Below are positions 1,960-61,566 of a DNA stretch of 64,000 nucleotides, piece by piece. The notes below the pieces were generated by a model that made no database searches, was not told the DNA's origin, and worked only from the letters and a program-made list of their open reading frames with translations. How positions within the stretch are numbered: position 1 is the first letter of the stretch; every line of letters starts with the position of its first letter. The translations under genes were made by a program, and so were the position numbers. Origin of the DNA: Patescibacteria group bacterium (GTDB lineage Bacteria > Patescibacteriota > Patescibacteriia > 2-01-FULL-39-33); assembly GCA_038065695.1 (NCBI GenBank), contig JBBTQN010000016.1:11738-75737 (forward strand). Reading direction: 5' to 3'.

Positions 1960-2340
1960 AACCTCCTCCTCCGTCATTCCCGTCCCCGCCTTCGCGAGGA
2001 TAAACTCCAGCGGGAATCCAGACTAATTCCAATTAAATCCGTGACTTTATCCTGGATCCCGGCTTTCGCCGGGATGACGGAAAAAAAAGGAGAAAAAATG
2101 TGGGACAAAAAATCCCCGCGTAATAAGACATCTTATCACGCGGGGGAACAAAAGGGGTCAAAGGGGTCAGGACTGCCCGCCTGCTTCGCTATGCGAAGCA
2201 TTGCGGGCAGGCTTGCGGACGGCCGCGAAACGCCAAAAGTCGTAGAAATCATCCCCAAGCCAGCCGAGGTCCAAGACGCGCCTAGCACTGCCCCCGTCGA
2301 GGCAGGCGAAGCGACGACCGCCGACGGCACTACGCCAAGT
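1960..2340. repeat. GC-rich hairpin repeat region (tcattcccg...cgggaatccag; tcctggatcccggctttcgccgggatgacg; gcccgcctgc...gcgggcaggc)
   Basis: Local GC is far above that of flanking DNA and several perfect stems are present. The plus-frame translation gives the repeat-derived peptide SWIPAFAGMT. Confidence 0.6.
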
Positions 2341-2877
2341 TGAGCCCAGCGCTCCGATTGGAAACTGCCTTTGAAGTTCGGGCTGGGCAGCGCCCAGAGC
2401 CAGAAGCTCTTCAATCTTGGCGGGACGATAGCCGAGTTTGTCTATCTCGGCCAGTACCTCATCGCCGTTGTTGAAATGGCGGTTGAAATGAAGAAGCTCC
2501 ACCGTCACTTCTTGTTTGCCTGTTCCAGTGATTGGGAAGTGTTCGGCGGTGATGTCCGGGTTCTCCCGGTCATACTTGCCGGCGGTAATTATGTCGGCGA
2601 GGGATTGGGTGTAATCGATGACGAGATTGTATTTCCCTGCCACATAGCGGCTGGCTTCTTCGGCCGCTTGGCGCGCCGTTTGAGCAGTAAAGATTTCCGC
2701 GACTTTGCGAGTTGTGATAATCATTTCCGCGACTCTTTGTTTTAAATTTTTATCCGTCTCTAAAAGACGCAAATCATCGTCGCTTCCGCCTGCCGCGAGC
2801 ACCTCATCGGCAAGCGCCTTAAAAACCTGAAACGCCTTGCCAAACGCCTGCAAAAATTCACTCTTTGGCTTACCCAT
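2167..2877 (-). CDS. hypothetical protein; C-terminal ~60 aa read through the GC-rich repeat region
   Basis: The ORF 2167..2916 is minus-strand. The likely start is MGKPKSEF at 2877, and there is no recognisable family. The 3' end overlaps repeat DNA (2167-2340). Confidence 0.45.
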   Translation of the reverse strand: MGKPKSEFLQAFGKAFQVFKALADEVLAAGGSDDDLRLLETDKNLKQRVAEMIITTRKVAEIFTAQTARQAAEEASRYVAGKYNLVIDYTQSLADIITAGKYDRENPDITAEHFPITGTGKQEVTVELLHFNRHFNNGDEVLAEIDKLGYRPAKIEELLALGAAQPELQRQFPIGALGSTWRSAVGGRRFACLDGGSARRVLDLGWLGDDFYDFWRFAAVRKPARNASHSEAGGQS

Positions 2878-3025
2878 CTTCTCACTCCTTATTTTTATGG
2901 CCTGCCACCTGTCCAAAGCCCATCTCCGGACTTATGGCTTACCATTATCCGCGTTAAAAGGACAACGAGTCATTATAGCAACCTTCGATAATTCTGTCAA
3001 ACTGCTATTTAGCGCATAACAAAAC

Positions 3026-3165
3026 GCGTAGAGACGTTGTGCTGCAACGTCTCCGGAGCCGTAGCATCGCTACGGCTCTACCTAACAAAACCGCCCTTCA
3101 GCGGTTTCATTGTAGAGACGCGGCGGTGCCGCGTCTCAAAAGACGCCCCAGCGGGGCGTCTGCTA
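3026..3165. repeat. cluster of five consecutive GC-rich hairpins (agagacgttgtgctgcaacgtctc; gagccgtagcatcgctacggctc; aaaccgcccttcagcggttt; gagacgcggcggtgccgcgtctc; agacgccccagcggggcgtct)
   Basis: Perfect inverted repeats read directly. They belong to the gtagagacgc...gcgtctctac family, also seen at 27728-27755, 45568-45630, 54927-54995 and 60215-60244. Confidence 0.8.
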
Positions 3166-3175
3166 CATTTTTATA

Positions 3176-4072
3176 TTACAGCCCAAATTTTTTAATATTT
3201 TCATTCGCGATTTTCTGGATTTTGGCGATTTCCGCTTTGCCGGCCGGCGAAGCAAATAAATGTTTGAATCTTTTTTGAACTTTTAAAAATTCTTCAACGG
3301 GGATTTTTTTATTTATCTTTATCCTCCCGACCAGCTCGCCGTTGACATATTCAATTATCGGATAAGATCCCGACTGAACCGCGAGTTGCGCCACCGAAAC
3401 CGTGTCTTTGGCTTCAATCCCCCAGCCCGGCACGCACGGCGTATAAATTTGTAAATATTTCGGACCCTTGATGCTCAAGGCCTTTTTCACCTTGGCCGTC
3501 AAATCCGGCAGATCGCCGACCGTGACGGTCGCCACATAAGGCAAATGATGCGCCAAAGCGATTCCGATCATATCCTTTTTAGACAAATCATTGCCGAAAG
3601 AACGCTCCCCGGCTGGAGTGGTGGTGGTATTAGCGTCCAGAGGCGTGGCGCCGCTGGACTGGTAGCCGGTATTTTGGTACGCCTCGTTGTCGTAGCAGAT
3701 GTATAAAATATTTTCGCCCCGTTCCCACATGCCGGAAATATTTCCCAAGCCGATGTCAAAAGTCGCGCCGTCCCCGCCGATGGCAATAATATTTATGTCT
3801 TTGTCTTTTTTTTGGTATTTCAAGGCCGCCAAAATGCCGGAAGCGACCGAGGAGGCATTTTCAAACAAGCTATGGATGTAAGGCGTCTTAAAAATAGTGT
3901 TGGGATACTTCGTCGTCGTCACTTCCATGCAGCCGGTGGCGTTGGTGATGATCGTGTCGGGCCCGGCCGCGTCAATTATAAGCCGCAGCGCCACGATCAT
4001 CCCGCAGCCGGCGCAAGCGCTGTGCTTCGGGGAAAAATTTCTGGATAGGGGAGATTTATATTTTTTATTCAT
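3176..4072 (-). CDS. porB: pyruvate/2-oxoacid:ferredoxin oxidoreductase beta subunit (TPP-binding)
   Basis: Carries HSACAGCGMIVALRL and GCME Cys motifs, the IAIGGDGATFDIG TPP-binding motif and YDNEAYQNTG. Confidence 0.9.
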   Translation of the reverse strand: MNKKYKSPLSRNFSPKHSACAGCGMIVALRLIIDAAGPDTIITNATGCMEVTTTKYPNTIFKTPYIHSLFENASSVASGILAALKYQKKDKDINIIAIGGDGATFDIGLGNISGMWERGENILYICYDNEAYQNTGYQSSGATPLDANTTTTPAGERSFGNDLSKKDMIGIALAHHLPYVATVTVGDLPDLTAKVKKALSIKGPKYLQIYTPCVPGWGIEAKDTVSVAQLAVQSGSYPIIEYVNGELVGRIKINKKIPVEEFLKVQKRFKHLFASPAGKAEIAKIQKIANENIKKFGL

Positions 4073-4989: not shown

Positions 4990-6165
4990 TTATTTTCCGA
5001 CGAAAATTATTTTCTCTTTGGTTCTCTTGGATATCTCAATGGTCTTTTTTATCATCTCCTTGGTAATATCGCGACCGCCCAAACCCATGATAACACCGGT
5101 GATTTTCGCTTGGCTTTGGCCATACAAAGCGCGCTTTATCTCGGTCGCTAAAATCCCTTCAGTGCCGAGTGAAATCGATTTGTCCAGCACGGCGATATTT
5201 TCGGCCTTAACCAACAATTTAATAATTTCATCGTCCGGAAACGGCCGGAAAGCGGTGATTTTTAAGATACCGATTGTGTTTTTGTGTTTTTGTGTTTTTG
5301 TGTTTTTGTGATATTCATCCACCGCCTCTTTCATTGTCCCTAAAACTGAACCCATCGCCACGATGACGGTCTTGGCGTTTTTATCGCCATAATATTCCGC
5401 CAAGTTAAGCGGCCGGCCGAATATTTTTTTAAAATTATCCATTTCCTTTTTAATCTCCGCTTTTGAGGCGGCCAAATCATCGTGCAAACTTTTCCTGATT
5501 TCAAAATAATGTTCCGGCGTGACCAGCGGCCCGAAAGTCAAAGGATTTTTTACATCCAATTTTTCCGAGGACTGATAAGCCGGCAAATATTTTTTGATTT
5601 TTTCCGCGGCTTCAATTTCCACCGGCTCCACCACATGAGTGAGAATAAAGCCGTCCAAATTCACCATCACCGGAAGCTCCAATTTCTCCCCCACTTTATA
5701 AGCCAAGATATGTAAGTCACAAACTTCCTGCACGGTCTCGCCAAAAAGCATTATCCAGCCGGCGTCGCGCATAATCATCACGTCCTGCTGATCATTCCAG
5801 ATATTTATCGGCGCCGAAACTGAACGATTGGCGTCGGTCATAACCACCGGGAGCCGCATGCCCGCCAGATTATAAAGCACTTCAGCCATAAGCAGTAACC
5901 CCTGCGAAGAAGTGGCGGTATAAGTCCTCACCCCGGCCGCCGACGCGCCCAAAACGATGGAAGCCGCGGCGAATTCGCTTTCCGCCCGCACATATTCAAA
6001 ATCCGCCTTGCCGGCCTCGCTGTTGGGCTGGCCATCGGCTTTCAGCTTGGCCAGTTCTTCCACAATATGCGTCTGCGGCGTGATGGGATACGCAGAAACC
6101 ACACCTACGCCGATATTATTAATTGTCTCGGCAATCGCCCGACTGCCTTCTAATATTTTTTTCAT
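4990..6165 (-). CDS. porA: pyruvate/2-oxoacid:ferredoxin oxidoreductase alpha subunit
   Basis: Reads MKKILEGSRAIAETINNIGVGVVSAYPITPQTHIVEELAKL..., which is the POR alpha domain architecture. Confidence 0.9.
   Translation of the reverse strand: MKKILEGSRAIAETINNIGVGVVSAYPITPQTHIVEELAKLKADGQPNSEAGKADFEYVRAESEFAAASIVLGASAAGVRTYTATSSQGLLLMAEVLYNLAGMRLPVVMTDANRSVSAPINIWNDQQDVMIMRDAGWIMLFGETVQEVCDLHILAYKVGEKLELPVMVNLDGFILTHVVEPVEIEAAEKIKKYLPAYQSSEKLDVKNPLTFGPLVTPEHYFEIRKSLHDDLAASKAEIKKEMDNFKKIFGRPLNLAEYYGDKNAKTVIVAMGSVLGTMKEAVDEYHKNTKTQKHKNTIGILKITAFRPFPDDEIIKLLVKAENIAVLDKSISLGTEGILATEIKRALYGQSQAKITGVIMGLGGRDITKEMIKKTIEISKRTKEKIIFVGK
5275..5310. repeat. 8-bp microsatellite (gtgttttt)x~4.5 inside porA coding sequence (encodes KNTKTQKHKNT in frame)
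   Basis: Direct reading of tgtgtttttgtgtttttgtgtttttgtgtttttgtg. Confidence 0.85.
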
Positions 6166-14945: not shown

Positions 14946-14986
14946 AAAAATCGTCCCCCACCTTTAAAGGTGGGGGACGATTTTTT
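14946..14986. terminator. bidirectional rho-independent terminator between convergent rnj and the downstream minus-strand gene
   Basis: The hairpin aaaaatcgtcccccacc-tttaaa-ggtgggggacgatttttt has A- and T-runs on both sides. Confidence 0.8.
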
Positions 14987-14996
14987 AAGGTTAAGA

Positions 14997-16034
14997 TTAC
15001 GGCTGTAAAATATCTTCCGTCCGGCCATTAATGGAAATAATCACCTTTTTGACGGTGGAAAATTGTTTCAGGGTCTGGATGATTTGGGCGCTGATCGCCG
15101 CCACGCGGCAAGAACCGCCGACTTGATACTCTAATTGCTCGTCAAAATCCGCTTTAGCCGTGCCACTCACAATCGTCACCTTTTGCAGTTTGACTCCCGG
15201 ATTAATATTCGTCTCATAACCGGCTTGCGCTTCGTCCTGGGTCAATTCGCCGGCTAAAAGAAGTTCTAAAGCGGCTTTGGCCGGCGTTTCGGTCTTAGCT
15301 ACAACCCGGTCAACCGGAAAAACTTTATTGCAAGTCATCGCCGGATCTAATTTGGTGTTATTAAAATAGATTTTTAATTTAGTCGTGTCGCCCAAGTTCA
15401 ATTTTAGCGGAACGGAAATTTTATCCGTATCCGAACCGTCCTTGGCCGAGGCCTGATAAACTTCCAAAACCACATCCGTGCTGGTCGGCGTCTTGGTTAG
15501 ATAATTTATTTCTTTGGTAAAAGCGCCGAACTGGCCCAGGTCCGGGCTTTGCGCCATCGCCGTGGAAGAAAATAAAACATCGCCGTTTCCGTCTTTCAAC
15601 CTGAAACTGACCACGCTCTCAAATACCCGGGCGATACCCTCCACTTTGAACGGCAAATTTACTTCACCGCCCGCGAAGGGATAAAAAACTGAAATGTTCT
15701 TGCCCGGCTGGCATTCATTCCTGAAATATGACCACTCTTCGCAAGCGCTGCCGTCGGAAAAAAAGCAAACGCCGTACTCGCCGCCATTGGGGTTGGTTTT
15801 AATCGTTGAATTTCCGCCTTGTTTCAAGCAAAAAGCCGAAGCAGGATTGGCGATGGCGGTGTTGCCGCAACCGGTGATAGGCATCGGCGAGACCGGGTTG
15901 CCGTGTTTGACCCATTCGCCGTTTTGGCAAAGCCAAGTGTCTTCCTCGCCGCGCAAAAAGACGAGACCGACGATGACCGCTAAAATGATAATGACCATTG
16001 ACAGCCCTAAAATAATAACGGTTTTCTTGTCCAT
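14997..16034 (-). CDS. membrane-anchored protein with DUF333-like Cys-rich domain and GerMN/Gmad2-like domains
   Basis: An N-terminal TM segment is followed by CQNGEW...CGNTAIANPASAFCLKQGG...GVCFFSDGSACEEWSYFRNEC and a C-terminal GerMN-like region. Confidence 0.5.
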   Translation of the reverse strand: MDKKTVIILGLSMVIIILAVIVGLVFLRGEEDTWLCQNGEWVKHGNPVSPMPITGCGNTAIANPASAFCLKQGGNSTIKTNPNGGEYGVCFFSDGSACEEWSYFRNECQPGKNISVFYPFAGGEVNLPFKVEGIARVFESVVSFRLKDGNGDVLFSSTAMAQSPDLGQFGAFTKEINYLTKTPTSTDVVLEVYQASAKDGSDTDKISVPLKLNLGDTTKLKIYFNNTKLDPAMTCNKVFPVDRVVAKTETPAKAALELLLAGELTQDEAQAGYETNINPGVKLQKVTIVSGTAKADFDEQLEYQVGGSCRVAAISAQIIQTLKQFSTVKKVIISINGRTEDILQP

Positions 16035-24112: not shown

Positions 24113-24226
24113 CTTCCCCCTCCTTGTCTTAAGGAGGGGGTTGGGGGAGGTCTTAAAATAAATTTTATTTAAGACCCCTCCGTCCCGCTTGGCGGGACAC
24201 CTCCCCTTGAAACAAGGGGAGGATTT
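24113..24226. repeat. GGGGAGG-family composite palindromic element (three hairpins)
   Basis: The sequence is ccccctccttgtcttaaggaggggg-ttgggggagg-tcttaaaataaattttatttaagacc-cctccgtcccgcttggcgggac-cctccccttgaaacaaggggagg. Confidence 0.8.
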
Positions 24227-27709: not shown

Positions 27710-27727
27710 TGGAAATTGTTTTATTTT

Positions 27728-27755
27728 GTAGAGACGCATTGCCATGCGTCTCTAC
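27728..27755. repeat. hairpin gtagagacgcattgccatgcgtctctac overlapping ruvX stop codon
   Basis: A perfect 10-bp stem. Member of the gtagagacgc hairpin family. Confidence 0.85.
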
Positions 27756-34120: not shown

Positions 34121-34163
34121 ATTTTAAAAATATAAAAATATAAAAACTTAAAAATAAATTTTA

Positions 34164-34862: not shown

Positions 34863-34968
34863 AATTTTAAAAATATAAAAATATAAAACTATAAAAATAT
34901 AAATTTTGGAACTGATTATTTTTTAGATCTAACATATTTTATTCTTGTATTATTGTGTTCTTGTATTT

Positions 34969-36358: not shown

Positions 36359-36408
36359 ATTATTTTAAAAATATAAAAATATAAAAATATTCTTGTATTC
36401 TTGTATTT

Positions 36409-36663
36409 TTATATTCTTGTATTCTTGTAAACCACCCGCCACCTTTTATCCTTACTCATCGGCCGGCATTCGATAAACTCAATCACATCCCCGATCTTGT
36501 ATTGATTCTTGGGATCGTGGACTTTATACTTTTTGCTTACTTTATATCTCTTGTGGTATCTGGGGTGCATTTTAAAACGGTCAATTTTAACCACGACGGT
36601 CTTTTCCATTTTATCGGAAACCACTTCGCCTTTGAATTTTTTTAATATTTTATTTTCCTTCAT
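36409..36663 (-). CDS. rpsQ: 30S ribosomal protein S17
   Basis: Reads [27 protein letters not shown]. Confidence 0.9.
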
Positions 36664-37984: not shown

Positions 37985-38066
37985 AATTATAAAAATATAA
38001 AAATACAAGAATATAAAAATATTTTATTTTGAATTGTTTTTTGTTTTGTTGATTTTTTAATAACTA

Positions 38067-44514: not shown

Positions 44515-44612
44515 TTCCCCTCCTTTCTAAGGAGGGGTTAGGGGAGGTTATGAAAGTCACGAAAATTGGCGTGAGTTTCAAAACCCCTCCTAACCTCCCC
44601 TTTGAAAGGGGA
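44515..44612. repeat. GGGGAGG-family composite palindromic element (hairpin-arm-hairpin-arm-hairpin)
   Basis: The sequence is cccctcctttctaaggagggg-ttaggggagg-ttatgaaagtcacgaaaattggcgtgagtttcaaaa-cccctcctaa-cctcccctttgaaaggggagg. Confidence 0.85.
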
Positions 44613-44720
44613 GGAATTTAACGAATATTCGTAAATTCGTAAAAATTCGTAATTCGTAGTTATTTTTATCTAAATTTAGCTAATTTTTATAAATAAAATA
44701 TTAATAATTTCTCTACGGGG

Positions 44721-44842: not shown

Positions 44843-45232
44843 ATGATGTCACCTTCTGAACAAAAACGATTTGTTGCTGTTGCTATTCTGTGCTTACTTT
44901 TTACTGCCGTCGTTGGCGGGACAGTAGGATACCATCATGGTCTTGCGGATGGTAAAAACGCTCTACAAGAAACCGCGCCGGTGGAAACCGCTCAAAAAGA
45001 AATGACGGAAAAGATTCCTCAATTCTTCCCAATGAACCCACCAAATATGGAAGTGGTGAGTGAATGGAGCAATAAATTATCCCCCGTTCCTTTTTCTCAT
45101 GCTAATTATGGCGACAACGCCAAATCCAGATATGTGAAAATTGATGGGAGGATGGCAGTGCAGTCAGTAGAATACCAAGCGATGTCTATTGCCTTCATCC
45201 CGCCGGATTGCGGCGAAAGCGAAGGACAGTGA
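44843..45232 (+). CDS. hypothetical membrane-anchored protein (foreign composition, strong SD)
   Basis: An N-terminal TM segment (FVAVAILCLLFTAVVGG). GC is higher than in the host genes. Confidence 0.5.
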   Translation: MMSPSEQKRFVAVAILCLLFTAVVGGTVGYHHGLADGKNALQETAPVETAQKEMTEKIPQFFPMNPPNMEVVSEWSNKLSPVPFSHANYGDNAKSRYVKIDGRMAVQSVEYQAMSIAFIPPDCGESEGQ

Positions 45233-45268
45233 ACGGAAAACGGAAAAACAGGAAAGGAGAAAAAACAA

Positions 45269-45451
45269 ATGGACAAATCACTCACAGAGATGGAGTGCGT
45301 GGAAGAAATCGGTTTTGACGATCTCCAACAGAGATTGGAAAAACTGGTTAATCTTTTGAAAGAGCGTGAAACGGGATGTTTCACTTGGCACGAGATGCTC
45401 AACGAGCAGTTGAAAAAGCTCCACGGTCTTCTGTGTCCGCTCTTTTCTTAA
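45269..45451 (+). CDS. hypothetical small protein (strong SD ggaaaggag)
   Basis: ORF only. Confidence 0.4.
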   Translation: MDKSLTEMECVEEIGFDDLQQRLEKLVNLLKERETGCFTWHEMLNEQLKKLHGLLCPLFS

Positions 45452-45485
45452 GTAGCACCTTCCCTTGTAAAACACAATCAACATC

Positions 45486-45532
45486 CGACCCGCCTTGAGA
45501 CAAAGCTGTCTCTCGGCCGGGTCTTTTTTTTG
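45486..45532 (+). terminator. rho-independent terminator (gacccgcc...ggccgggtc + T8)
   Basis: A hairpin followed by tttttttt at 45524-45531. Confidence 0.7.
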
Positions 45533-45567
45533 TTTTGAAAAGAACATTCTTGTCTTCGATGTTCCGT

Positions 45568-45630
45568 TGTAGAGACGGATTGCATCCGTCTCCGACGCCC
45601 AATTGAGACGCATGGCAATGCGTCTCTACA
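45568..45630. repeat. nested hairpins of the gtagagacgc family (tgtagagacggattgcatccgtctcc...gagacgcatggcaatgcgtctctaca)
   Basis: Perfect stems. The inner loop 'catggcaatg' is the reverse complement of the loop at 27728-27755. Confidence 0.8.
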
Positions 45631-45739
45631 TTTTCATCTTATAATATTTATAAAATAGTGGCAAGATATTGAAAACAACCCCGCAAATGCAGGGTTGCCT
45701 TTGGTAGTAAAAATTATTTCAAATTCATGATTTATTCGC

Positions 45740-46018
45740 TTAAAATAAATCATCATGCGATCCGGTAGCCACTAATTCCAAAACCAAAATGTCATGCCGG
45801 TAGCGATAGATTAAAAGCCAATCAGGCGCAATATGACATTCCCAGCAATCCTTAAAATTGCCGACTAATTTATGATTGCAATTTTTATCCGGAACATCTT
45901 TTCTTTCAATCAATAAGCTAATAATTGCTTTCAAATTATTAAATAAATCAGGATCTGATTTTTTTAATTTACGATATTGCCGCTTGAATTTGTTTGTATA
46001 CCAGATTGAATAAGCCAT
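45740..46018 (-). CDS. yafQ: type II toxin YafQ/RelE family mRNA interferase
   Basis: Reads KFKRQYRKL...HKLVGNFKDCWECHIAPDWLLIYRYRHDILVLELVATGSHDDLF. Confidence 0.8.
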   Translation of the reverse strand: MAYSIWYTNKFKRQYRKLKKSDPDLFNNLKAIISLLIERKDVPDKNCNHKLVGNFKDCWECHIAPDWLLIYRYRHDILVLELVATGSHDDLF

Positions 46019-46021
46019 AAA

Positions 46022-46306
46022 CTAGGATAAGAGCTGTTTTTCTAATTCCTTTAAACTCCTTGCCGGCTTACGACGACCGGATTTGTAAGCTGCCTCCATT
46101 GCAGCAATTTCGGCTAAAATCTTTTTTTCTTGTTCTGGCGTAAAACCATTTTCGGTCGTTAGTAAAAAGGGCACGCCCTGATCGCGAACCACTTTGGCCA
46201 AATAAATCTTGATCCCTGTGCTTAAATCAAGGCCCAAAGAATTAAAAATTTTCGCGGCTTGGCGCTTGATTTTTTTATCCACTCTGGCTTGGACTAATTC
46301 AGTCAT
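46022..46306 (-). CDS. dinJ: type II antitoxin DinJ/RelB family
   Basis: Reads ARVDKKIKRQAAKIFNSLGLDLSTGIKIYLAKVVRDQGVPFLL, 3 nt upstream of yafQ. Confidence 0.8.
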   Translation of the reverse strand: MTELVQARVDKKIKRQAAKIFNSLGLDLSTGIKIYLAKVVRDQGVPFLLTTENGFTPEQEKKILAEIAAMEAAYKSGRRKPARSLKELEKQLLS

Positions 46307-46423
46307 AAAATTTAATATTATTAATATATTCATATTGTATTACATTGTATAGACATTGTCAATAGAGTTATCCACAACCAAAAAATCCCCCGCCAGAACG
46401 GAAGATTTTTTTATTATAATAAC

Positions 46424-49107: not shown

Positions 49108-49142
49108 AATTTTAAAAATATAAAAATAATAAAAATATAAAA

Positions 49143-49571
49143 TTAAGCCTTTGCCTTCTTGTCTTTCTTCACTCCGTAAATGCTTCGGCCGCGCTTCCTG
49201 CCTTCCACGCCCGCCGAATCATAGACGCCCCGGACAATATGGTATCTCACGCCCGGTAAATCTTTGACTCGGCCGCCGCGAATCAAAACAATGGAGTGTT
49301 CCTGTAAGTTGTGGCCGATGCCCGGGATATAAGCGGTCACTTCCTGGCCATTGGATAAGCGGACACGAGCAATCTTCCGAAGAGCGGAGTTCGGCTTCTT
49401 CGGCGTTGTGGTCCTCACCTGGATACACACGCCGCGTTTGAACACGTTGCCTTTTCTAATGGTCTTCCTTTGGCGATGCAAGGTGTCTAAGGTGATTTGC
49501 AAATCCGGCGTTTTGGATTTCTTTTTATTCGGTTTTCTTTTCTTCCGAAGCAGTTGGTTGATGGTAGGCAT
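49143..49571 (-). CDS. rpsL: 30S ribosomal protein S12 with ~15-aa N-terminal insertion
   Basis: Reads [13 protein letters not shown]...[30 protein letters not shown]. Confidence 0.9.
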
Positions 49572-53589: not shown

Positions 53590-53607
53590 CGTTAATTTCT
53601 TAATTTC

Positions 53608-55152
53608 TTAATTTTTTAATTTCTTATTCGTATTATACACCCAAACCGCAATCACCCCGTAGAGCGCGACCACCAAAAAAATATTTAGCCACTCTATTTG
53701 GAGGCTTGAGAGTGGCACTTTTGACAAGCGATCAACCACCCAAAGAAAATAACCAGCGGCAAAATAGCTGACATAACCCAAGAGTTTTCCGAGCGGCAAA
53801 AAAACCGCGCCAACGACCGCGTTGATAAAGCCCCAAACCATTAAAAACGGAATGGTGGGCAAAATTAAAATATTGGCCAGAAAAGAAGAAAGAGAAAGCC
53901 GATGAAAATAAAAAATTATCAAAGGTAAGGTCATTATTTGGGCGGCCAAGGTCATAATAAATATTTCTTTGACTTGCCAAAATTCGGGCAGGCGGCGGAA
54001 ATATTTTTCCAAAATAGGAACGAGATAAATCAAGCCGATGACCGCCATAAAAGAAAGCTGAAAACCGACGTCAAAAATCAAAACTTTCGGGTTGAAGGCG
54101 AGCATCACGGCGGCGGCAAAAACAATCAGATTAAGCGAGTTATTCAGCCGGCCGACTTTCTGGGCATACAAGACGAGGATGCCCATAATCGCCGAGCGGA
54201 CGGCCGAAGCCGGCGCGCCGATCATGACAATATAAAAAACAATGATGGCGGCGATGGCCCAAAACGCCTTTGGCCGAGATATCCCGAGGCCAATCGCGAC
54301 GCTCATTAAAACCATGGAAATAATGGCAATATGCTGGCCGGAAATGGCGATGATATGGGTGACGCCGGTTTGGGAAAATTTATCCATCCACGCCGGCGAC
54401 AAACCGCCGCGGTTGTTAAAAAGCATCGCCTGAAGAAGGGCGTTTTGCGGCTCTCGAATGGAGAGGGAGAGGCCATTAGACAAAAATTTTTTCGCTTTTA
54501 ATACATTAATTATTAGACCCCTCCCCAACCCTCCCCTTGAGACAAGGGGAGGGGGATTTGTTTTAGAAATCTTCGCGAACGAACACACCGAATAAATATC
54601 ATATCGGGCTAAATATTTTTCATAATCAAAATCATCGAACTTTTCCGGTTTTTTTAGTTGGCAAGAAACACCGACTTCATCACCGTATTGATATTTAGGA
54701 TAAAGCGGTAAGGTCAATAAAACTTTGCCGCTAACCGGTATTTTACCCGCCAATTTTGAATTAATAGTTATTTTCTGCTTATCAATCCGTTCGTCAATAT
54801 CGGCGACAACACCGGAAAAGTTGGTTTCTCGGCCGTTATAATAGTAAATTTTCGTTTCGTCGGAAAAATCAGGCAGAGAAATTTGATAACGCCAAACGCC
54901 GAGGAAGAAACAAAAAATAAAAAATATTAAGACGCCCCACCGGGGCGTCTCTACAACGGGCAAGCCCGCCTTCGCTAAAGCTACGGCGGGCAAGGAAAAA
55001 ATCAGCCCGAGAGCTGATATTAAAATTAAACAAAAGATAATAAACGAGTTAAAAGAAAAAAAACTGGAAACACCGACGCCGACAATAAAAAATAAAAGAC
55101 AAAATAAAAATATTTTTGATTTGGAATGGGTAATTCTCTGCCAATAATTCAT
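53608..55152 (-). CDS. comEC: DNA internalization competence protein ComEC/Rec2 (DUF4131 + competence domain) carrying two in-frame palindromic-repeat insertions
   Basis: Reads GVWRYQISLPDFSDE...YDIYSVCSF (DUF4131) and HIIAISGQHIAIISMVLM (competence domain). Repeat DNA at 54511-54565 and 54927-54995 is translated in frame. Confidence 0.75.
   Translation of the reverse strand: MNYWQRITHSKSKIFLFCLLFFIVGVGVSSFFSFNSFIIFCLILISALGLIFSLPAVALAKAGLPVVETPRWGVLIFFIFCFFLGVWRYQISLPDFSDETKIYYYNGRETNFSGVVADIDERIDKQKITINSKLAGKIPVSGKVLLTLPLYPKYQYGDEVGVSCQLKKPEKFDDFDYEKYLARYDIYSVCSFAKISKTNPPPLVSRGGLGRGLIINVLKAKKFLSNGLSLSIREPQNALLQAMLFNNRGGLSPAWMDKFSQTGVTHIIAISGQHIAIISMVLMSVAIGLGISRPKAFWAIAAIIVFYIVMIGAPASAVRSAIMGILVLYAQKVGRLNNSLNLIVFAAAVMLAFNPKVLIFDVGFQLSFMAVIGLIYLVPILEKYFRRLPEFWQVKEIFIMTLAAQIMTLPLIIFYFHRLSLSSFLANILILPTIPFLMVWGFINAVVGAVFLPLGKLLGYVSYFAAGYFLWVVDRLSKVPLSSLQIEWLNIFLVVALYGVIAVWVYNTNKKLKN
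54511..54565. repeat. GGGGAGG-family palindromic element inside comEC ORF (encodes [15 protein letters not shown])
   Basis: The sequence is cccctccccaaccctccccttgagacaaggggagggggatttg. Confidence 0.85.
54927..54995. repeat. gtagagacgc-family hairpins inside comEC ORF (encode LPAVALAKAGLPVVETPRWGV)
   Basis: The sequence is ttaagacgccccaccggggcgtctctac followed by cccgccttcgctaaagctacggcggg. Confidence 0.8.
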
Positions 55153-55195
55153 TATTTTTTGAATTACGAAATGACATGATTTATTTATATCTAAA

Positions 55196-55300
55196 TTCAG
55201 AAATTGCCTTATTTTCGCCGCGAGGACTGTTTGAGCCCCGCCTTGGCGGGGCGAGTTCCGCAGCCAGAAAATAAGGCAATTCCTGAATTTAGTAATTCGC
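55196..55300. mobile_element. MITE-like element: 25-bp perfect terminal inverted repeats flanking a GC-rich hairpin core
   Basis: Reads ctaaattcagaaattgccttattttc...gccccgccttggcggggc...gaaaataaggcaattcctgaatttag. Confidence 0.7.
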
Positions 55301-59888: not shown

Positions 59889-60214
59889 AAATTTGCCACA
59901 CCTTCGGAAAAATGAGAAAAAAGATGATAAAAGAGGAATTTAAGCCAAAATTTTAACGAATAAACAGATTTCGGCGGGTGGGGCCAGCCGATTTCAAAAA
60001 TTAAAATTAGAGTAAAAATCACAAAATAAAAAAATAGACCCGCGAGCGAAAATCAATAATTTTAAAATTCAAAAAATCTTCGCCAGATCTATCTTATCAT
60101 TGCTTCCCAACATCTTTAATTATAACACCTTCAAGCCCCTTGTCAAAAATCGCTTTTTGGCTGGTTTTTTAAAATTTTAAAGACGGTTTGGGGATAACAT
60201 TTTGGATAAAAAAA

Positions 60215-60244
60215 GCGTCGAGACGCCCGACGGGGCGTCTCGAC
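60215..60244. repeat. hairpin gcgtcgagacgcccgacggggcgtctcgac downstream of ftsZ
   Basis: A perfect stem, in the gtagagacgc family. Confidence 0.8.
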
Positions 60245-61444: not shown

Positions 61445-61566
61445 ATAATTTAGTTTATAAAGTTTATAAAGTTAAAAGTTTATAAAATCATCTTTTTAAT
61501 AATTATTTTTATCTAATATACTTTTGACTTTATAGACTTTATAGACTTTATAGACTTTTGACTTCG
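61445..61566. repeat. AT-word palindromic spacer ('tataaagtt ... gactttatagac' inverted)
   Basis: The pairing gtttataaagtttataaagttaaaagt ... acttttgactttatagactttatagactttatagac forms a near-perfect long palindrome. Confidence 0.75.

Follow-up and report, generated by a model that had tools for sequence, protein, structure and literature searches.

We analyzed a 64-kb stretch of DNA (the window; contig JBBTQN010000016.1, positions 11,738 to 75,737) from a Patescibacteria genome recovered from the 0.1-μm fraction of Hainich groundwater, where it belongs to an 86-kb contig, with emphasis on an array of GC-rich hairpins at positions 3028-3166. The array lies between a porB-like gene on the minus strand (3176-4072; TPP_enzyme_C domain), which has POR_N/PFOR_II and POR genes upstream, and the next gene beyond the array (2167-2877, minus strand). 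The latter gene has a predicted sigma-70-type promoter on the minus strand at 2972-3000 (TTGACA-17-TGnTATAAT) that matches the consensus at 12 of 12 positions and has the extended TG. This promoter is directly beyond the array and therefore the array is exactly at an operon boundary. We conclude that the 140-bp array is two pairs of repetitive extragenic palindromes (REPs) on either side of one ordinary transcription terminator. Based on the results below, the REPs are very probably GTAG-footed, double-foot REPs that are the non-autonomous partner of REP-associated tyrosine transposases (RAYTs, or TnpA_REP, of the HUH-Y1 type) of subclass 2.4, which is group 4 of Bertels.

The array at the por operon boundary

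The array contains five perfect stem-loops, at 3031-3053 (9 bp), 3056-3078 (10 bp), 3088-3107 (7 bp), 3115-3137 (10 bp), and 3141-3161 (9 bp). An earlier note on this DNA had described five hairpins of a single family ending at 3165. All five are present, the end is at 3166, and four of the hairpins are REPs and the central one is an ordinary terminator. The predicted fold of the array was much more stable than those of shuffled sequences, both as RNA from the minus strand (-94.9 kcal/mol, z of -8.4) and as DNA (-55.1 kcal/mol, z of -9.05). Independent assemblies from ENA and Logan contained the array without a single difference (100% identity), indicating that it is not an assembly artefact.

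The four REPs form two doublets, each with units in opposite orientations and the GTAG feet facing outward (head-out). On the plus strand, doublet A (3028-3081) reads GTAGAGACGTTG-tgctg-CAACGTCTC, cg, GAGCCGTAGC-atc-GCTACGGCTCTAC. The first of these segments is unit 1, the left half (3028-3053, plus strand); unit 2, the right half (3056-3081, minus strand), has the foot variant GTAGAGCCG and reads GTAGAGCCGTAGC-gat-GCTACGGCTC on the minus strand. Doublet B (3112-3166) reads GTAGAGACGCGGC-ggt-GCCGCGTCTC, aaa, AGACGCCCC-agc-GGGGCGTCTGCTAC on the plus strand, with unit 3 as its left half (3112-3137, plus strand) and unit 4 as its right half (3141-3166, minus strand; GTAGCAGACGCCCC-gct-GGGGCGTCT). 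Unit 4 has the foot variant GTAGCAGACG, and 10 nt separate its end from the stop codon of the porB-like gene (3176).

The central hairpin (3083-3107, minus strand) reads and folds as the native intrinsic terminator of the porB-like gene. On the minus (transcribed) strand it is AAACCGC-tgaagg-GCGGTTTTGTTA, that is, GCGGTTT and then TGTTA. An exact 9-bp direct repeat, TAACAAAAC, brackets doublet A. Its left copy is at 3017-3025 and its right copy, at 3083-3091, is the T-tract of the terminator (GTTTTGTTA on the minus strand). The repeat looks like either a target-site duplication or a local duplication, and doublet A was the only one of the six REP loci in the window with a flanking direct repeat.

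Other copies of the family in the window

Related copies had been reported at four other places in the window, and we located them at 27728-27755, 45569-45629, 54930-54954, and 60217-60244. In total, there are nine REP units at six loci, with perfect stems of 9-12 bp and loops of 3-5 nt. The typical unit is a GC-rich hairpin with the foot 5'-GTAGAGACG and, on the other arm, 3'-CGTCTCTAC; the inner 3-5 bp and the loop vary freely. A GTAG foot is present in eight of the nine units, and the remaining unit has a symmetric GTCG/CGAC variant. Units are either single (28-nt palindromes) or in head-out inverted pairs that resemble REP doublets forming hairpins (REPINs) and bacterial interspersed mosaic elements (BIMEs). 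Both forms, single double-foot palindromes and inverted dimers, are found side by side in the window, with three dimers (3028-3081, 3112-3166, and 45569-45629).

The matches greatly exceeded those expected by chance. GAGACG-N3-20-CGTCTC was found six times in the window compared to 0.02 expected, and GTAGAGACG with at most one mismatch was found 15 times compared to 3.4 expected. There were no REP copies in 16 kb of extra flanking DNA. Copies were defined by perfect stems of at least 9 bp only. When one mismatch was allowed and any hairpin with a GT[AG]G foot was accepted, there were 23 matches compared to 8-22 in shuffled sequences, which is no better than chance, and this looser scan was set aside. 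At gathering thresholds, Rfam detected five tRNAs and nothing else in the whole window, and a permissive Rfam scan of 2950-3250 gave one chance-level match (E of 0.43).

One copy provides the stop codon of ruvX. The double-foot REP at 27728-27755 (28 nt; GTAGAGACGCAT-tgcc-ATGCGTCTCTAC) overlaps the end of ruvX, and its GTAG is the source of the TAG stop (27752-27754, minus strand). The ruvX product matches the RuvX profile from end to end. The REP is 18 nt upstream of the likely start of recO at 27710. In the longer recO open reading frame (ORF), residue 13 is the first to match the RecO_N profile, and therefore the start of recO is probably at 27710 and the ATG in the hairpin, which had been taken as the start, is most likely an artefact of ORF calling.

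The REPIN-like inverted doublet at 45569-45629 had been described as a nested hairpin at 45568-45630. It consists of GTAGAGACGGAT-tgc-ATCCGTCTC, a 12-nt spacer, and GAGACGCAT-ggca-ATGCGTCTCTAC, and the unit on the right has the same sequence as the ruvX copy. A yafQ-like toxin gene and a small plus-strand ORF converge on the doublet, which separates their 3' ends. The doublet is also at the edge of an insertion between fusA and tuf (approximately 45230-46420) with several small ORFs and a toxin-antitoxin pair of the relB/yafQ type.

The copy downstream of ftsZ has the anatomy of an intrinsic terminator. This double-foot REP (60217-60244; GTCGAGACGCCC-gacg-GGGCGTCTCGAC) has the symmetric foot variant on both arms and is 24 nt past the ftsZ stop codon. 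On the minus strand, its 12-13 bp stem is followed by gcTTTTTTT (60208-60216). Downstream of this REP/terminator is a perfect promoter sequence for nrdD (TTGACA-16-TGnTATAAT; 60119-60146, minus strand). Matches to the sigma-70 consensus at 12 of 12 positions were found on the minus strand at 1866-1894, 2972-3000, and 60119-60146; the last two have the extended -10 TG, and each of these two is directly downstream of a REP-bearing 3' region.

One copy is in frame in conserved coding sequence, confirming the earlier placement inside comEC, the gene for a conserved competence channel. The REP unit at 54930-54954 (minus strand; GTAGAGACGCCCC-ggt-GGGGCGTCT) encodes ..VETPRWGV.. in the loop between transmembrane segments 2 and 3 (TM2-TM3). 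A companion GC-rich hairpin, GCCCGCC...GGCGGGC (54964-54991, minus strand), is in frame in the same loop insertion, of 13-21 residues, and encodes ..LPAVALAKAGL... The ComEC residues that precede the insertion (MNYWQRITHSKSKIFLF...GLIF) align with homologues. The TM2-TM3 loop is short in most of the approximately 35 close homologues, and the window protein has ...SLPAVALAKAGLPVVETPRWGV... there. The nearest homologues are from Falkowbacteria, Buchananbacteria, and Parcubacteria and are at most 53% identical.

Two other ComEC proteins have similar insertions. P0006, from another member of the Patescibacteria (49% identical), has a canonical GTAGAGACGTTG-cgcg-CAACGTCTCTAC in the same TM2-TM3 loop, in a reading frame that differs from that of the window copy (peptide RDVARNVST). 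In P0097, a third ComEC, the peptide VETQNFASL is located in another variable loop. No insert is present in homologues more closely related to the window protein, and for this reason the REPs in ComEC look like independent insertions into tolerant loops. We considered whether ComEC might be a hot spot, and discarded the idea; the window protein and P0006 share a loop, P0097 has its insert elsewhere, and the evidence for targeting is weak. Directly upstream of the comEC start, at 55191-55292, is a separate 26-nt inverted repeat (96% complementary, arms 50 nt apart) that encloses a GC hairpin, GCCCCGCC-aaggc-GGGGC. It could be either an element like the miniature transposable elements with inverted repeats (MITEs) or a structured leader.

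The same palindrome in other phyla

The hairpins in the window belong to a family that is found in many phyla. We scanned a genome collection, with one genome per species, for GTAGAGACG-N6-14-CGTCTCTAC and found matches at at least 120 loci; the values that follow are among the matches listed. The hosts included Cyanobacteria (Nostoc, Calothrix, and others), Bacteroidota, Chloroflexi, Spirochaetes, Geobacter, Omnitrophota, and Acidobacteria. Two hosts were from the Candidate Phyla Radiation (CPR), one metagenome-assembled genome from Patescibacteria and one from Gracilibacteria. The typical palindrome was GTAGAGACG-N10/11-CGTCTCTAC. The 130 copies were mostly 28 nt (91 copies) or 29 nt (32 copies) long, and all 130 had both feet. 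A full-text search of the literature for GTAGAGACG found unrelated primer sequences only.

Sequence variation in the center of the palindrome preserves the hairpin. We tested for covariation at the three base pairs that the search pattern leaves free. There were 87 double-change cells compared to 23.7 ± 6 in shuffled data, and none of 500 shuffles gave a value as high. Ninety-nine percent of the cells were paired, and the signal collapsed when the register was slid.

The copies had several additional regularities. Of the 56 unique 28-mers (L002-L121), 31 were perfect palindromes through the 'loop' (with central CATG, TGCA, AATT, CGCG, and others). Palindromy through the loop would not be selected by hairpin folding alone and therefore points to a process that creates symmetry, for example dimer collapse or template switching. 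Position 10 was a pyrimidine in 124 of the 130 copies, and the base 5' of GTAG was T in 51% of the flanks compared to 26% in background. Tandem duplications of half a REP adjoined full REPs in L025, L031, L033, L066, L090, and L112, and at 4531-4592 in L129. Examples are GTAGAGACGTTGCATT followed by GTAGAGACGTTGCATTGCAACGTCTCTAC, and GAGTTGAGACGCACGGCC three times over. These duplications suggest that slippage occurred or that cleavage and rejoining were aborted at the foot.

Association with RAYT genes

The palindromes and a family of RAYT genes were associated in both directions in other genomes. Clustering of the ORFs near the hairpins gave a single recurrent family, of approximately 180-240 residues with the motifs MPNHLH and NYIxNNP. 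A gene of this type was at or around the hairpin in 7 of the 120 loci listed. Its products matched the NCBIfam family REP_Tyr_transpos with E values of 1e-15 to 1e-18, which are under the family cut-off, and matches to Pfam Y1_Tnp were marginal. In L023 the gene is flanked by two hairpins, and in L021, L083, L114, and L129 a hairpin is within the gene (in frame in the first three).

In the reciprocal test, we scanned 80 loci from JGI metagenomes that encode RAYT homologues, covering each gene and 500 bp on either side. The strict palindrome was present at 33 of the 80 loci, and any double-foot GT[AG]G palindrome (feet GTAGAGACG, GTAGAGACA, GTAGGGACG, or GTAGGGGCA) at 51; a palindrome was inside the RAYT gene at 40. 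Among the best 120 RAYT homologues from databases, NHuH was present in all 120, mostly with L as the middle residue of HuH, and YIxxNP was present in 117. A REP was encoded in frame in 103 of these proteins, mostly as VETHGRASL or a close variant.

Position of the palindromes relative to genes

The copies were preferentially located past the 3' ends of genes. Using crude ORF calls for the 120 loci listed, we found that 80% of 125 copies were extragenic, even though ORFs accounted for 82% of the DNA. There were 33 copies in convergent gaps, 46 in co-directional gaps, and 8 in divergent gaps; the corresponding proportions of intergenic DNA at these loci were 18%, 56%, and 27%. Thus, convergent gaps were enriched and divergent gaps were depleted for REPs. 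Co-directional copies were a median of 19.5 nt from the upstream stop codon compared to 97 nt from the next start codon, and 38 of the 46 were nearer to the stop. In the window, five of the six REP loci are 3' of a gene. The association with gene ends that had been proposed from the window alone thus extends to the family.

The REPs in the window and the subclass 2.4 RAYTs

The REPs in the window most closely resemble those of subclass 2.4. Quentin et al. (2018) described this subclass as having NH[IFV]H and YIxNNP motifs and long or double-foot REPs with a 5' GT[AG]G and a 3' C[TC]AC, with REPs in frame in tnpA_REP and with hosts in Cyanobacteria, Bacteroidetes, and various other phyla (PMC6006769). 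They proposed that double-foot REPs originate by a central deletion within an inverted dimer (PMC6006769). The elements described here share the GT[AG]G and C[TC]AC feet, the long GC-rich stem, inverted dimers, in-frame copies, and hosts among Cyanobacteria, Bacteroidetes, and scattered phyla, and the genes beside the same palindrome encode NHuH and YIxNNP. The earlier note had called the hairpins a REP/BIME-type family that occurs in both orientations, citing loops that are exact reverse complements (CATTGCCATG and CATGGCAATG). The loop pair was correct. The assignment is also supported, and we can narrow it to double-foot REPs of the kind linked to subclass 2.4. The differences are that the host is a member of the CPR, that there is no cognate RAYT in the approximately 80 kb searched, that the copies vary more, including in their feet (GTAGAGCCG, GTAGCAGACG, and GTCGAGACG), and that the RAYT homologues mostly have L at the middle residue of HuH rather than the published I, F, or V.

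Several observations weigh against this assignment. No RAYT was detected by tblastn or profile hidden Markov model (HMM) in the window plus approximately 16 kb of extra flank. The copies in the window are heterogeneous; only two units are identical, three have variant feet, and there is no evident master sequence, which would fit an old or inactive population. The 9-bp direct repeat that brackets doublet A is not expected from Y1-type transposition. Lastly, the RAYT that is labelled as belonging to 'Candidatus Paceibacterota' (P0142, in the 9.5-kb contig L129 from JGI 3300037067) is on a contig that is probably mis-binned or very recently transferred.

L129 is itself a textbook REPtron. It has GTAGAGACGCAC-ggcc-GTGCGTCTCTAC inside the RAYT gene, another palindrome at the stop codon, and three related copies nearby, and the gene is flanked by type I restriction-modification genes. 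The closest homologues of P0142 share 78-83% identity with it, and all relatives that have a name (one of the closest is named Bacteroidales) belong to Bacteroidota, so we did not count it as a CPR-resident RAYT. There was also no RAYT detected by tblastn or with a 170-sequence profile HMM in L001, L124, or L127, or in the CPR loci L087, L120, L122, and L123, and CPR-like neighbours were clearly seen at 0 of the 80 metagenomic RAYT loci. In the literature library searched, there was no paper that links REPs or RAYTs with Patescibacteria. A published survey indicates that genomes with these transposase genes are larger on average.

Proposed mechanism

We infer how the REPs might be mobilized in this genome, and any effect they have at the RNA level, by analogy with the established biochemistry of E. 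coli TnpA_REP and of IS200/IS605 TnpA. The hairpin would form in single-stranded DNA, and the transposase would recognize the stem and the GTAG foot and then cut and rejoin the DNA beside the foot. A RAYT of subclass 2.4 would cleave single-stranded GTAGAGACGCATTGCCATGCGTCTCTAC beside the foot, with the T at -1 as a candidate determinant. Copies would persist at sites where they do little harm: immediately past stop codons, in convergent gaps, beside terminators that were already present, and, now and then, in frame within protein surface loops. In this reading, two REP pairs inserted so as to flank the native por terminator and thereby gave rise to the 140-bp array. When transcribed, the hairpins are predicted to be very stable and could secondarily protect 3' ends, and where a T-tract follows, as at the ftsZ copy, they could act as terminators.

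Alternative explanations

It is possible, though we consider it unlikely, that the REPs in this genome are orphans without a resident RAYT that have been retained through co-option as 3'-end signals. At the boundaries between the por operon and the hypothetical gene and between ftsZ and nrdD, REPs are at the terminator position before perfect promoters, and REPs are tolerated in frame in ComEC loops.

We also considered whether the hairpins are selected RNA elements, either factor-independent terminators or stabilizers of mRNA 3' ends, that evolved in place and share a sequence because the stem works well. The earlier note had suggested such roles, in a genome thought to lack classical terminators. 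In support, five of the six loci are just downstream of a gene 3' end, the por array is between a stop codon and a perfect promoter, and the RNA fold is very stable. Among terminator-like sites in 17 kb, the ftsZ copy ranked first (13 pairs and then T7), and a perfect promoter is beyond it. Beyond doublet A, the GTTTTGTTA of the terminator is present a second time, and so this doublet has a T-tract in a loose sense; the copies at 27728, 45569, and 54930 have none. Among the matches listed, 36 of 126 family hairpins adjoined T-tracts compared to 30 of 126 at a control offset, which is background, and on these grounds we rejected a terminator role for the family as a whole. Neither the ruvX-recO copy, which is within an operon, nor the comEC copy, which is an in-frame part of the gene, can be a terminator. 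Termination also does not require that a 9-bp stem be identical across unrelated phyla, nor does it account for the strong tie of the family to RAYT genes. Based on these results, it is improbable that the hairpins arose in place as RNA elements. Some REP copies could nonetheless work as terminators, and this is the part of the suggestion that stands, in particular for the ftsZ copy.

The premise that the genome lacks classical terminators did not hold. Plain terminators with A- and T-tracts are present at 14946-14985, at 2114-2145, at three sites in the extra flank, and inside the array itself. Those at 15150-15183, 15697-15723, and 19634-19660 in L124, and at 14946-14985 in the window, are perfect bidirectional A-tract/T-tract terminators with stems of 11-18 bp. 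They are between genes, and classical intrinsic terminators are therefore common in this genome. We found no support for a role of the REPs in compensating for absent terminators, and the idea of the REPs as substitute terminators is mostly wrong.

A third explanation is that the hairpins are MITEs, in which case GTAGAGACG and CGTCTCTAC would be their terminal inverted repeats and they would be mobilized by a transposase of the DDE type, with duplication of the target site. The exact 9-bp repeat around doublet A would fit, and the separate 102-nt element with 26-nt inverted ends upstream of comEC is evidence of MITE-like DNA in this genome. However, the right copy of the 9-mer is the T-tract of the terminator, and local duplication explains the repeat equally well; no other copy in the window has a flanking direct repeat. 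The units (25-61 nt) are below the size of MITEs (70-300 bp), and the family is associated with a Y1/HUH RAYT gene and not with one for a DDE transposase. We regard this explanation as very improbable.

Least probable of all is that the palindromes are bound as duplex DNA by a protein, as paired type IIS restriction sites (CGTCTC is the BsmBI/Esp3I site), operators, or uptake signals linked to ComEC: inverted pairs at gene ends are also typical of Neisseria uptake sequences, and 31 of the 56 unique 28-mers from other phyla are palindromic through the loop, but the loops of the window copies are not, the center varies freely and with compensatory changes, which fits recognition of a hairpin and not of a specific duplex sequence, GAGACG/CGTCTC sites outside the REPs are neither avoided nor enriched (15 compared to approximately 16 expected), and the distribution among phyla tracks RAYTs and not competence.

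Comparison with other repeats

The double-foot REPs described here also resemble other known elements in part. Like the REPs and BIMEs of E. coli (with the TnpA_REP YafM) and the REPINs of Pseudomonas, they are GTAG-footed, alternate in orientation, cluster past stop codons, and are presumed to be substrates of a single-copy HUH-Y1 enzyme. The REPs of E. coli and Pseudomonas have known side effects at the RNA level, mRNA stabilization and termination. The stem here is different and unrelated to the E. coli Y and Z types, no Y/Z1/Z2 typing or IHF-containing linker is known for it, feet are often on both sides, and the enzyme is of subclass 2.4 rather than subclass 2.2 or 2.5.

Di Nocera et al. 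(2013) described GTAG REPs whose termini provide TAG stops and that form dimers of opposite orientation, lie 3' of genes, and are occasionally within ORFs (PMC3733652). The family described here shares with this super-family (including the cyanobacterial GTAG-12, GTAG-15, and GTAG-16) the GTAG tag, the opposite-orientation dimers, a location in unidirectional or convergent gaps, TAG stops, and some intra-ORF copies. The main text of that study, which has 24 families, contains neither GTAGAG nor AGACG, and the CPR was not covered (PMC3733652).

The copy in comEC is reminiscent of the Rickettsia palindromic elements (RPEs), which are small palindromic repeats in frame in coding genes and are tolerated in surface loops. 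RPEs are longer and restricted to Rickettsia, and only one copy of the GTAG family here is intragenic. The RPEs of R. conorii end in a conserved tetranucleotide, and rickettsial repeats have been placed in CGTC families (PMC3733652). With Rho-independent terminators, the REPs share a GC-rich hairpin at gene 3' ends, and the ftsZ copy also the 12-13 bp stem and T7. Unlike such terminators, most copies have no T-tract, the stem is conserved across phyla, and some copies are within operons or coding sequences.

Other repeats in the window

There is a second, unrelated hairpin family in this DNA, CCC(C)TCC(CC)TT-loop-AAGG(GG)AGGG. Copies are at 1807-1829, 24116-24140, 24200-24222, 44517-44537, 44594-44614, and 54529-54553, and five further copies are in L127 (7621-8727). 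They are often paired approximately 80 nt apart, and a third copy of GGGGAGG(G) often follows. Pattern counts were 4 compared to 0.02 expected and 2 compared to 0.01 expected. The 54529-54553 copy falls within comEC, in frame, and encodes part of a variable loop (..PPPLVSRGGLGRG..); a similar peptide is present there in the homologue P0008. No gene associated with this second family was identified.

Many intergenic regions also contain AT-rich tandem arrays with a period of 7-9 nt (TAAAAATA, TATTCTTG, TTAATTTC, TTGTGTTT, and GACTTTATA), for example at 34125-34156, 34868-34903, 36366-36429, 37988-38022, 49113-49146, 53592-53626, 5274-5310, and 61526-61558. These arrays are typically just 5' of minus-strand genes in the ribosomal-protein region.

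Implications

The REPs are a known kind of element; what is new here is the Patescibacteria host and the set of members. REPs and RAYTs have usually been discussed for Proteobacteria and, lately, for Cyanobacteria and Bacteroidetes, and reduced genomes are now shown to be carriers as well. Recognition of the family explains odd peptides (VETxxxxSL and RDxxxxxVST) and false start codons in CPR gene calls and so allows better annotation, and REPs at terminator positions provide a testable case. If the REPs in this genome are orphans, then ultra-small genomes would keep transposase-free relics of REPs and reuse them as 3'-end signals.

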